64,000 bases of DNA from Escherichia coli (GCF_003334785.1 NZ_QOWV01000001.1), one strand, 5' to 3'. Shown: positions 12,885 through 15,973, numbered from the stretch's first letter. Made by a program: numbers and translations. Notes: generated from the sequence alone by a model not told the origin.

Positions 12885-13117
12885 TGAGATCCCGTTATTT
12901 TTATCAATTTTTGTTGCTATCCGATCGCAAAAAAGCCACGTCATATGATCAGATAATTCTGATAATGATAGACGCTATTTAACACTTCACACGGTTTGTA
13001 TACGGAAAAGCATTTTGCTTTTTGTATTCAATTTAGACAGAATTTTATTAATCATTTCAGGGTAATGGGGTGATGAGATGTTGCGTAACAGGGCCAGAAG
13101 GCTAGACTACAAAATAA

Positions 13118-14122
<1,005 letters not shown>

Positions 14123-14168
14123 CAAAAGCAATTTTTCCGGCTGTCTGTATACAAAAACGCCGCAAAGT

Positions 14169-14182
14169 TTGAGCGAAGTCAA
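14169..14182. promoter_or_regulatory. FNR box TTGAG-CGAA-GTCAA centred about 42 bp upstream of the fnrS 5' end
   Basis: Inverted repeat resembling TTGAT-N4-ATCAA at class II promoter spacing; CAATAT -10-like hexamer at 14204..14209. Confidence 0.65.
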
Positions 14183-14217
14183 TAAACTCTCTACCCATTC
14201 AGGGCAATATCTCTCTT

Positions 14218-14339
14218 GCAGGTGAATGCAACGTCAAGCGATGGGCGTTGCGCTCCATATTGTCTTACTTCCTTTTTTGAATTACTGCATAGCACAATTG
14301 ATTCGTACGACGCCGACTTTGATGAGTCGGCTTTTTTTT
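14218..14339 (+). ncRNA. fnrS: FNR-activated small RNA FnrS
   Basis: Sequence GCAGGUGAAUGCAACGUCAAGCGAUGGGCG...GACGCCGACUUUGAUGAGUCGGCUUUUUUUU matches my recollection of FnrS; terminator hairpin plus U8; between zntB and dbpA. Confidence 0.85.
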
Positions 14340-14396
14340 GCCTGTTATTTATCAGCGTCTACCCTTTAAGAGTCCACCCAATGACCAGAGGGAAAT

Positions 14397-14570
14397 ATGA
14401 CGACACTTATTTATTTGCAAATTCCTGTCCCTGAACCGATTCCTGGCGATCCTGTTCCAGTGCCCGATCCGATCCCTCGCCCGCAACCCATGCCTGACCC
14501 ACCACCCGATGAAGAACCGATTAAATTGTCGCATCGTGAGCGTAGATCTGCGAGGATACGCGCCTGCTAA
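14397..14570 (+). CDS. Candidate 57-aa proline-rich small ORF (MTTLIYLQIPVPEPIPGDPVPVPDPIPRPQPMPDPPPDEEPIKLSHRERRSARIRAC)
   Basis: ATG 14397 preceded by GAGGGA; not in the ORF track, which shows no ORF under 60 aa; ends 30 bp before the dbpA start; no homology evidence available to me. Confidence 0.25.
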   Translation: MTTLIYLQIPVPEPIPGDPVPVPDPIPRPQPMPDPPPDEEPIKLSHRERRSARIRAC

Positions 14571-14599
14571 CTTTGCGTCGATGACCACGAGAATAGATT

Positions 14600-15973
14600 G
14601 TGACCGCTTTTTCTACCCTGAATGTTTTGCCTCCCGCCCAACTCACGAACCTTAATGAGTTGGGTTATTTAACCATGACGCCGGTGCAGGCCGCCGCGCT
14701 TCCGGCGATCCTTGCCGGAAAAGATGTTCGCGTGCAGGCGAAAACCGGCAGCGGCAAAACGGCGGCTTTTGGCCTCGGCTTGTTACAGCAAATTGATGCG
14801 TCGCTATTTCAAACCCAGGCTTTAGTGCTGTGTCCTACGCGTGAACTGGCGGATCAGGTGGCAGGTGAATTGCGTCGGCTGGCGCGTTTTCTGCCAAATA
14901 CCAAAATTTTGACGTTGTGCGGTGGTCAACCGTTCGGTATGCAGCGTGATTCGTTGCAACATGCGCCGCATATTATCGTGGCAACGCCGGGGCGTTTGCT
15001 GGATCACCTGCAAAAAGGCACGGTATCACTGGATGCGTTGAATACGCTGGTGATGGATGAGGCCGACCGCATGCTGGATATGGGATTTAGCGATGCCATT
15101 GATGATGTCATCCGTTTTGCGCCTGCATCTCGACAGACGCTTCTGTTTTCGGCAACCTGGCCGGAAGCCATCGCTGCAATCAGCGGACGAGTGCAACGCG
15201 ATCCTTTGGCGATTGAAATTGACTCAACAGATGCTTTGCCACCCATTGAACAACAATTTTATGAGACATCCAGCAAAGGCAAAATTCCTCTGTTGCAACG
15301 GTTATTAAGCTTGCATCAGCCATCCTCTTGCGTGGTGTTTTGCAATACCAAAAAAGATTGCCAGGCTGTCTGCGACGCGCTGAATGAAGTAGGGCAAAGT
15401 GCATTGTCATTACACGGCGATTTGGAGCAACGCGATCGCGATCAGACCCTGGTACGTTTTGCTAACGGTAGCGCCCGTGTACTGGTCGCGACTGATGTTG
15501 CTGCGCGTGGTCTGGATATTAAATCGCTTGAGCTGGTGGTGAACTTTGAGCTGGCGTGGGACCCTGAAGTTCATGTACATCGCATCGGTCGTACAGCTCG
15601 TGCAGGAAATAGCGGTCTGGCGATCAGTTTCTGTGCTCCGGAAGAAGCACAGCGGGCCAATATCATTTCTGACATGTTGCAGATAAAACTTAACTGGCAA
15701 ACGCCGCCAGCTAATAGTTCCATTGCGACGCTGGAAGCAGAAATGGCAACGTTGTGTATCGATGGCGGGAAAAAAGCCAAAATGCGCCCGGGTGATGTAT
15801 TAGGTGCACTGACAGGAGATATCGGGCTTGATGGCGCAGATATTGGCAAAATCGCCGTGCATCCGGCGCATGTCTATGTCGCGGTCCGTCAGGCTGTTGC
15901 TCATAAAGCATGGAAACAGTTACAGGGCGGGAAGATTAAAGGAAAAACGTGCCGGGTGCGGTTATTAAAATAA
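14600..15973 (+). CDS. dbpA: ATP-dependent RNA helicase DbpA (DEAD-box, 23S rRNA-specific)
   Basis: 457-aa ORF with GTG start; motifs AKTGSGKT, DEAD (VMDEAD), SAT, HRIGRTAR present. Confidence 0.9.
   Translation: MTAFSTLNVLPPAQLTNLNELGYLTMTPVQAAALPAILAGKDVRVQAKTGSGKTAAFGLGLLQQIDASLFQTQALVLCPTRELADQVAGELRRLARFLPNTKILTLCGGQPFGMQRDSLQHAPHIIVATPGRLLDHLQKGTVSLDALNTLVMDEADRMLDMGFSDAIDDVIRFAPASRQTLLFSATWPEAIAAISGRVQRDPLAIEIDSTDALPPIEQQFYETSSKGKIPLLQRLLSLHQPSSCVVFCNTKKDCQAVCDALNEVGQSALSLHGDLEQRDRDQTLVRFANGSARVLVATDVAARGLDIKSLELVVNFELAWDPEVHVHRIGRTARAGNSGLAISFCAPEEAQRANIISDMLQIKLNWQTPPANSSIATLEAEMATLCIDGGKKAKMRPGDVLGALTGDIGLDGADIGKIAVHPAHVYVAVRQAVAHKAWKQLQGGKIKGKTCRVRLLK

Follow-up and report, generated by a model that had tools for sequence, protein, structure and literature searches.

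The proline-rich ORF between fnrS and dbpA of Escherichia coli is the small-protein gene ynaL, whose 3′ end overlies the dbpA promoter

Introduction

Between the small RNA gene fnrS and the helicase gene dbpA, the Escherichia coli chromosome carries a short open reading frame that is unusually rich in proline codons. Such a frame may be a gene in its own right, a leader peptide whose translation regulates the gene downstream, or a chance ORF in an untranslated region. An earlier interpretation, made without database searches (hereafter the sequence-only reading), favoured neither of the last two possibilities: ribosomes stalling on a run of prolines could couple dbpA expression to EF-P status or translation capacity, or the frame could be there by chance. 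Which of these descriptions fits the locus was examined in a window of 64,000 nucleotides (the whole stretch of DNA analysed; NZ_QOWV01000001.1 of assembly GCF_003334785.1), which represents a K-12-like E. coli chromosome. All coordinates given below are those of the window, unless stated otherwise.

Identity of the open reading frame

Direct reading of the frame bore out its earlier description. On the + strand, an ATG codon (14397-14399) opens 57 sense codons closed by TAA (14568-14570), and the translation product, MTTLIYLQIPVPEPIPGDPVPVPDPIPRPQPMPDPPPDEEPIKLSHRERRSARIRAC, contains 16 prolines among its 57 residues, three of them consecutive. The GA-rich Shine-Dalgarno-like motif that had been noticed upstream of the start codon is the pentanucleotide GAGGG. 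The placement between fnrS and dbpA was likewise confirmed, by a match to Rfam family RF01796 (14218-14335, 134.8 bits) on the upstream side and, downstream, by the GTG start codon of dbpA, which is separated from the ynaL stop codon by 29 nt. Features of the locus are summarized in Table 1. Dozens of ORFs of at least 30 aa are found within the window, so a length of 57 codons is not in itself beyond chance.

Table 1. Features of the fnrS-ynaL-dbpA locus (window coordinates)
Feature	Position	Strand	Evidence
fnrS sRNA with intrinsic terminator (hairpin 14312-14331 and T tract)	14218..14339	+	Rfam, terminator scan
Candidate weak ynaL promoter, TTGCCT-N16-TACCCT, overlapping the T tract of the fnrS terminator	14338..14365	+	conservation
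ynaL Shine-Dalgarno sequence GAGGG, four bases 5′ of the ATG	14388..14392	+	read from sequence
ynaL CDS, proline-rich small protein YnaL	14397..14570	+	ORF call, RefSeq, Pfam, SPA tag
Core of YnaL, codons D18-E40, DPVPVPDPIPRPQPMPDPPPDEE, under purifying selection on the peptide	14448..14516	+	entropy, dN/dS
Three consecutive Pro codons P35-P37, within D-PPP-D (14496-14510)	14499..14507	+	
dbpA promoter, upstream block CCGATTAAATTGTCGCAT, about -49 to -32, read as P41-H46	14517..14534	+	wobble conservation
Hypervariable 9-nt promoter spacer, R47-R49	14535..14543	+	all three codon positions vary
dbpA promoter, downstream block: AGATC, extended -10 TGc-GAGGAT, discriminator	14544..14565	+	
dbpA transcription start site (G of the last ynaL sense codon, TGC)	14566	+	Kim et al. 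2012
dbpA 5′ UTR, 34 nt, with conserved CGAGA motif before the GTG	14566..14599	+	
dbpA, ATP-dependent 23S rRNA-specific RNA helicase, GTG start	14600..15973	+	

A 601-nt query of the locus is 100% identical to the sequence of MG1655, in which the CDS is annotated as ynaL between zntB and dbpA, and hits with at least 95% identity were obtained in 5393 of the 5426 complete E. coli genomes. The RefSeq label at identical DNA is ynaL, with the product named “protein YnaL” or “proline-rich small protein YnaL” (WP_001296046.1). The protein also matches the Pfam family “Protein YnaL-like” (PF23677.1) over its whole length (residues 1-57 on positions 1-57 of the 57-position model, i-Evalue 2.2e-40, 136.8 bits); 164 homologous clusters were found, and PF23677 is present in 120 of 120 among the matches listed.

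The identical 57-aa YnaL, encoded between fnrS and dbpA, was detected by VanOrsdel (2018) by means of a chromosomal SPA tag and immunoblotting; in the same work ynaL was positive in a tetracycline ribosome-profiling screen, and it was proposed that the gene may share an operon with dbpA (PMC6001520). It is also included among the “previously known sORFs” for which Ribo-seq and RNA-seq changes were measured (Table S8 of PMC10746267). Ribosome occupancy, which the sequence-only reading had named as a check, is thus documented by two published data sets.

The ORF is therefore ynaL, a small-protein gene that has already been catalogued: its DNA, its 57-aa product and its position between fnrS and dbpA are the same as those of E. 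coli K-12 ynaL. For this reason nothing new is gained at the gene level, and the gain is a clearer anatomy of the locus. That it is an annotated gene had escaped the sequence-only reading. What is new relative to the annotation of the YnaL family is that the frame can be divided into a core constrained as peptide and a tail constrained as promoter.

Two further observations concern the locus in E. coli genomes. E. coli OSUCMP42NDM carries an IS1 element in the 5′ end of ynaL (positions 1088-1953 of locus L082), the remnant of the gene being annotated as a hypothetical protein; dbpA and the promoter block described below are intact in this strain. Of 5394 E. coli matches to the ynaL-dbpA region, six are on plasmid-labelled records; in one genome the region is present twice.

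Selection on the YnaL peptide

The comparative set comprised dbpA with 2.5 kb of flanking sequence from 80 species-representative Enterobacteriaceae genomes, plus MG1655. An in-frame proline-rich ORF was found just upstream of dbpA in 69 of the 81 loci (MG1655 and one truncated contig included). The genera in which it occurs are Escherichia, Citrobacter, Salmonella, Enterobacter, Lelliottia, Leclercia, Klebsiella, Raoultella, Kosakonia, Superficieibacter and Pseudocitrobacter; judging from these genomes, ynaL is confined to the core Enterobacteriaceae. A Shine-Dalgarno sequence of the GGAGG type precedes the ATG by 6-9 nt in nearly all of the 68 ORF-bearing species.

The N-terminal part of YnaL (approximately 15 residues) varies in both sequence and length, the changes always involving whole codons. 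It is followed by a core, DPVPxPDPIPRPQPMPDPPPDEEPIK, that is almost invariant in the aligned loci. Within codons D18-E40 the entropy of the first and second codon positions is close to 0, and that of the third position reaches 0.9-1.9 bits. The Nei-Gojobori method (NG86) gave dN of 0.094 and dS of 1.38 for this segment, i.e. a dN/dS of 0.068, which is similar to the value of 0.045 obtained for codons 2-100 of dbpA, whereas shifting these nucleotides into the two alternative sense frames raised the ratio to 2.8 and 3.4. The proline motif has the form DPPPD in 60 of 67 species; the remainder show DPSPD (three species), DPPPN (three) or DPPQE (one), so that four species are devoid of PPP.

Given an intact frame in 69 of 81 loci, a dN/dS of 0.068 and conserved Shine-Dalgarno sequences, ynaL is a real translated frame and not a chance ORF. 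The opposite view, that an untranslated region happens to contain a frame with no coding function, could point to the abundance of ORFs of similar length in the window, as well as to the last third of ynaL, which is conserved for a non-coding reason (see below). It is hardly credible against the detection of the protein, the ribosomes found on the ORF, the low dN/dS, the length differences that are all in frame across about 69 loci, and the conserved ribosome-binding site. The comparison of synonymous sites across Enterobacteriaceae, also suggested in the sequence-only reading, hence came out in favour of coding, and that reading's chance-ORF option is ruled out.

Two other candidates were rejected. 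The antisense ORF 14352-14588 is not retained as a coding frame, as the variable wobble sites of ynaL would be its first codon positions; tandem repeats, considered as the origin of the proline-rich tract, were not detected in it.

A deletion is present in E. coli E69 (L004), a GTDB species representative. The 33 nt missing at about 14430-14462 are removed in frame, with loss of EPIPGDPVPVP (11 codons) out of the X-Pro repeats near the N terminus, leaving a 46-aa YnaL with an intact core.

The dbpA promoter within the 3′ end of ynaL

The pattern of constraint shifts abruptly 3′ of E40. Codons P41-H46 (14517-14534) and R50-A56 (AGATCTGCGAGGATACGCGCC, 14544-14564) are invariant or nearly so, wobble positions included, and between them lies the hypervariable spacer. 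In 12 species (loci L021, L030, L031, L039, L041, L047, L049, L050, L056, L057, L058 and L061) an in-frame stop codon occurs within this spacer; YnaL is there 11-12 codons shorter and has no basic RSARIRAC tail, and the downstream block is unchanged. Because these 12 species stop early, the tail is dispensable for the YnaL protein. Its conservation (codons 41-57) reflects, on the evidence of the alignments, constraint acting at the level of DNA rather than peptide: the wobble positions would be invariant because the dbpA core promoter (-49 to +1) overlaps codons 41-57.

Parts of a promoter can be distinguished within the downstream block, namely a TG dinucleotide (14549-14550), the hexamer GAGGAT (14552-14557) and an 8-nt GC-rich discriminator, ACGCGCCT (14558-14565). 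The sequence CTGC-GAGGAT-ACGCGCC is identical in 71 loci. On these grounds of conservation alone the transcription start of dbpA was forecast at 14563-14566, and a published map later gave 14566. In this map, Kim et al. (2012) placed a + strand start, supported by 126 reads, at position 1407501 of NC_000913.2, assigned it to dbpA (b1343) with a 5′ UTR of 34 nt, and listed the upstream sequence ACCGATTAAATTGTCGCATCGTGAGCGTAGATCTGCGAGGATACGCGCCTG (PMC3415461, supplementary file 2). The RNA was obtained from mid-exponential cells and enriched for primary transcripts with terminator exonuclease (PMC3415461); the evidence for the dbpA start thus consists of one data set and one growth condition. 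The fnrS start of the same map converts to window position 14218, which is also the start of the Rfam match, confirming the conversion of coordinates. The upstream block falls inside the 50 nt preceding the mapped dbpA start. The supplements of the Cappable-seq and SMRT-Cappable-seq studies contained no matching start-site entries for this locus.

The dbpA start is located two bases 5′ of the ynaL stop codon, inside the last sense codon, and as a consequence the main dbpA mRNA lacks the (proline) codons of ynaL. This arrangement indicates that dbpA probably has no need of ynaL in cis, an independence that would narrow the hypotheses on YnaL function.

The dbpA promoter is weak by consensus. 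Its -10 hexamer GAGGAT matches at 3/6 positions and has an upstream TG; at a spacing of 17 nt, TCGCAT matches the -35 consensus at 2/6, and TTGTCG is found 20 nt upstream. A consensus promoter scan of 14100-14700 returned no site and so missed the mapped promoter. The poor consensus agrees with the observations of Grainger et al., in which a lacZ fusion to the whole intergenic region had low activity and was barely FNR-responsive (PMC1802558).

Bacterial promoters are commonly located within the 3′ part of the preceding CDS, and the dbpA promoter has the same layout. It differs from the usual promoters of this kind in that it appears to be the older of the two elements, being present in Kluyvera and in outgroups, where the ORF is absent (see below), so that here it is the ORF that reads into the promoter.

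The rRNA-type promoter rrnB P1 has a GC-rich, 8-nt discriminator. The dbpA promoter is similar in the GC content and length of its discriminator (ACGCGCCT) and in the position of its start, 9 nt after the -10 hexamer, but differs from promoters of the rRNA type in that GAGGAT is far from the -10 consensus; another hexamer register is possible. This likeness suggests growth-rate or ppGpp (stringent-type) control of the dbpA promoter, a mode of regulation that, if true, would suit the gene of a ribosome-assembly helicase.

Recognition of the last 17 ynaL codons as the dbpA promoter may be an advance beyond the present annotation, and it has practical implications. Any C-terminal tag or deletion of YnaL that changes 14517-14566 will also disturb dbpA transcription. 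Moreover, the RSARIRAC tail of YnaL should not be taken for a functional protein motif, since residues 18-40 alone are constrained as protein.

The promoter in loci devoid of ynaL

Five loci of the Kluyvera group (L071, L072, L075, L077 and L080) do not contain ynaL. In these, the fnrS terminator is followed within approximately 35 nt by GATTA..TGTCGCAT-N9-AGATCTGCGAGGATACGCGCC, whose distance from dbpA is the usual one. The downstream block is identical to that of the ynaL-bearing species, and the upstream block is partly conserved, with the GATTA motif, variable intervening bases and then a retained GTCGCAT end. About 130 nt 5′ of dbpA, some 150 nt corresponding to the body of ynaL are cleanly missing between CTACCCT and GATTA..TGTCGCAT. 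In a neighbour-joining tree of DbpA, a single-gene tree, the Kluyvera group is sister to Pseudocitrobacter and lies inside the ynaL-positive clade. Given this nesting among ynaL-positive genera, the simplest reading of the alignment is a secondary loss of ynaL in Kluyvera through a deletion of about 150 nt.

In the outgroups (Cedecea, Enterobacter sp. L074, Siccibacter and Atlantibacter) fnrS does not adjoin dbpA. The aligned position contains ATGACC-N17-TGcTAGAAT, or TAGCAT or TAGACT as the hexamer, followed by a GC-rich stretch, and is, as predicted from these motifs, a near-consensus extended -10 σ70 promoter. The Dryocola locus (L073) falls outside the anchoring pattern, yet is organized in the same way, its GC-rich stretch being a variant.

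Transcription of ynaL and the question of cis regulation

The candidate promoter of ynaL, TTGCCT-N16-TACCCT, is conserved in most of the species bearing the gene; its CTACCCT motif is present also in Kluyvera, which is devoid of ynaL. The consensus scan gave no hit at 14338-14365, and the map of Kim et al. contains no start there: it lists none between the starts of fnrS and dbpA, and hence none just 5′ of ynaL.

The proposal that ynaL is a leader peptide for dbpA has fared unevenly. The translated frame and the conserved PPP on which it was built have stood, whereas the coupling of dbpA to EF-P has not, in view of the transcription start at 14566, the Kluyvera loci, the variable position of the stop codon and the negative results on RNA structure; as a leader peptide for dbpA, ynaL is very unlikely. 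Its translation cannot act on the main dbpA mRNA, because that mRNA does not contain ynaL. Transcripts started further upstream do run into dbpA, as the terminator scan found no intrinsic terminator between the two genes, and some effect of ynaL in cis is conceivable on this minority of mRNAs.

RNA folding gave no indication of a structured leader. The segment 14490-14640 folded no better than its shuffles (z 0.12), the structure of the 34-nt dbpA leader with the dbpA start was not above that of shuffled sequence (z 1.23), and RNAalifold applied to 40 species yielded -4 kcal/mol and no compensatory pairs. One helix taken from the minimum free energy structure, pairing ynaL GUCGCAUCGUG with CACGA...UGUGAC in the region of the dbpA Shine-Dalgarno sequence and start, was considered and rejected: its z value was 0.12, and 216 of 500 shuffles reached the same covariation. 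The 6-bp half of this helix is invariant and therefore uninformative, and the other half was paired in only 62% of cells. In about 69 species ynaL has remained the neighbour of dbpA. Its stop codon lies 14-63 nt from dbpA, depending on the locus, so the spacing is not fixed.

The most developed form of the leader hypothesis is an upstream ORF that senses EF-P on transcripts started 5′ of ynaL. When EF-P is low, a pause at D-PPP-D would uncouple translation from transcription and allow Rho to terminate, with less read-through into dbpA, or, alternatively, ribosomes would reinitiate at the GTG located 29 nt further on. The proline-rich RNA (14421-14519) contains 42% C and 19% G, and its C-minus-G excess, 0.295 over 78 nt, ranks in the top 0.01% or so of + strand windows in the 64-kb sequence. 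By composition, this C-rich, G-poor RNA resembles a Rho loading site that would be exposed if ribosomes stall or if the ORF is left untranslated. Loss of EF-P reportedly leads to Rho-dependent polarity in E. coli (PMC5021804), and leader ORFs with proline codons are reported to control mgtA and mgtCBR in Salmonella (PMC6460261, PMC5299641). The absence of an intrinsic terminator, the DPPPD motif of 60 of 67 species and the approximately 20 conserved residues up to and including PPP, which would likewise be compatible with an arrest-peptide layout, are in line with such sensing.

Several observations argue against it. With the mapped start at 14566, ynaL is left out of the main dbpA mRNA; the map of Kim et al. 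also has no start 5′ of ynaL. Kluyvera retains the promoter (its upstream half in part) and a homologous UTR without ynaL. The ORF ends at variable positions (12 early stops) and at a variable distance from dbpA (14-63 nt), no significant or covarying RNA structure was found, and PPP is missing in four species. The intergenic lacZ fusion is low and barely FNR-responsive (PMC1802558), and tagged YnaL accumulates as a protein (PMC6001520). On balance, we consider EF-P sensing by ynaL unlikely.

Comparison with the Salmonella leader ORFs mgtL (of mgtA) and mgtP (of mgtCBR), which respond to EF-P or Pro-tRNA status, leads in the same direction. Like ynaL, they are short ORFs with consecutive proline codons, placed on the same strand 5′ of a larger gene, and EF-P dependence is expected of them. 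They are, however, situated inside the 5′ leader of the regulated gene, 3′ of its transcription start, and act via alternative hairpins or Rho. In the case of ynaL, dbpA transcription starts in the last sense codon of the ORF, and no conserved alternative structure is present; ynaL moreover far exceeds these leader ORFs in length, has about 23 residues that are selected as peptide, and gives a detectable protein product.

Upstream transcription could in principle matter irrespective of the peptide. The ynaL transcription unit encloses the whole dbpA promoter, and the order of fnrS terminator, TTGCCT-N16-TACCCT and ynaL is conserved; transcription from the weak ynaL promoter, or read-through from fnrS, might then occlude the dbpA promoter or add to its output, the peptide being secondary. 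This interference would leave unexplained both the selection on the peptide (dN/dS 0.068) and the conserved Shine-Dalgarno sequence, and the upstream transcription appears weak, with no start listed and low activity of the lacZ fusion (PMC1802558). We regard it as highly improbable.

A combined role for ynaL was considered as well, in which the conserved peptide is made and, on the minority transcripts, EF-P-dependent pausing at D-PPP-D leads to Rho termination or to altered passage over the dbpA promoter. Such a dual purpose seems decidedly unlikely; if real, it would tie synthesis of a helicase of 50S assembly to translation-elongation capacity.

Proposed role of YnaL

We thus favour, with a probability of about 0.78, an explanation in which ynaL consists of a peptide-constrained core and a tail over the dbpA promoter, dbpA is expressed from this internal promoter, and YnaL acts in trans with no leader function in cis. 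Gene identity, translation, selection on the peptide, overlap with the promoter and the transcription start are each established here or in the literature. According to this explanation, codons 18-40 (DPVPVPDPIPRPQPMPDPPPDEE) would encode an acidic segment of alternating X-Pro residues that is conserved as peptide, and codons 41-57 would overlie the dbpA core promoter, in whose spacer 12 species end the ORF. Transcription of dbpA would begin at 14566 within ynaL and give a 34-nt leader without ynaL codons. YnaL itself would act in trans, as a free peptide, on a partner. The D-PPP-D motif would make its own synthesis dependent on EF-P, and the GC-rich 8-nt discriminator would subject the dbpA promoter to stringent-type control.

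Structure prediction is consistent with a peptide of this kind. AlphaFold2, supplied with an alignment of 26 sequences, predicted neither helix nor strand in YnaL (pTM 0.22), with pLDDT near 90 at residues 21-40. On this model, YnaL would be an extended proline-rich rod and not a globular protein, and offers no fold for comparison. The proline-rich spacer of TonB has a similar alternating X-Pro composition, which predicts an extended, polyproline-II-like rod. YnaL differs from TonB in having only 57 aa, no transmembrane anchor and no C-terminal domain. Kinship with TonB was rejected, the resemblance being compositional only: the score against NF008084 was 20.8 bits, compared with a curated cut-off of 315, and the match to Pfam TonB_N had an E-value of 0.75. 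By default, YnaL is most likely a trans-acting, free, extended, acidic X-Pro peptide, and the most economical reading of its basic C-terminal tail is that it arose by accident, from reading through promoter DNA.

The motifs PPP, DPP and PPD make protein synthesis EF-P dependent. By analogy, synthesis of YnaL itself is probably EF-P dependent via D-PPP-D, and conservation of the polyproline motif in 60 of 67 species makes this a reasonable expectation. The supplement of the EF-P/EfpL Ribo-seq study has no ynaL entry.

Neighbouring start codons and small ORFs

In nearly all loci dbpA starts with GTG. Kosakonia cowanii (L061) has TTG instead, and for Citrobacter sp. NCU1 (L032) tblastn places the start on ATT, from which the true start is probably offset.

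Upstream of the fnrS-dbpA region, RefSeq has an ORF of 15 codons, named “protein YnaN” and labelled as gene ydaN, at about 13078-13125 of the window (L001 479-526), just 5′ of zntB. This ORF is a possible leader ORF for zntB, a zinc transporter gene.
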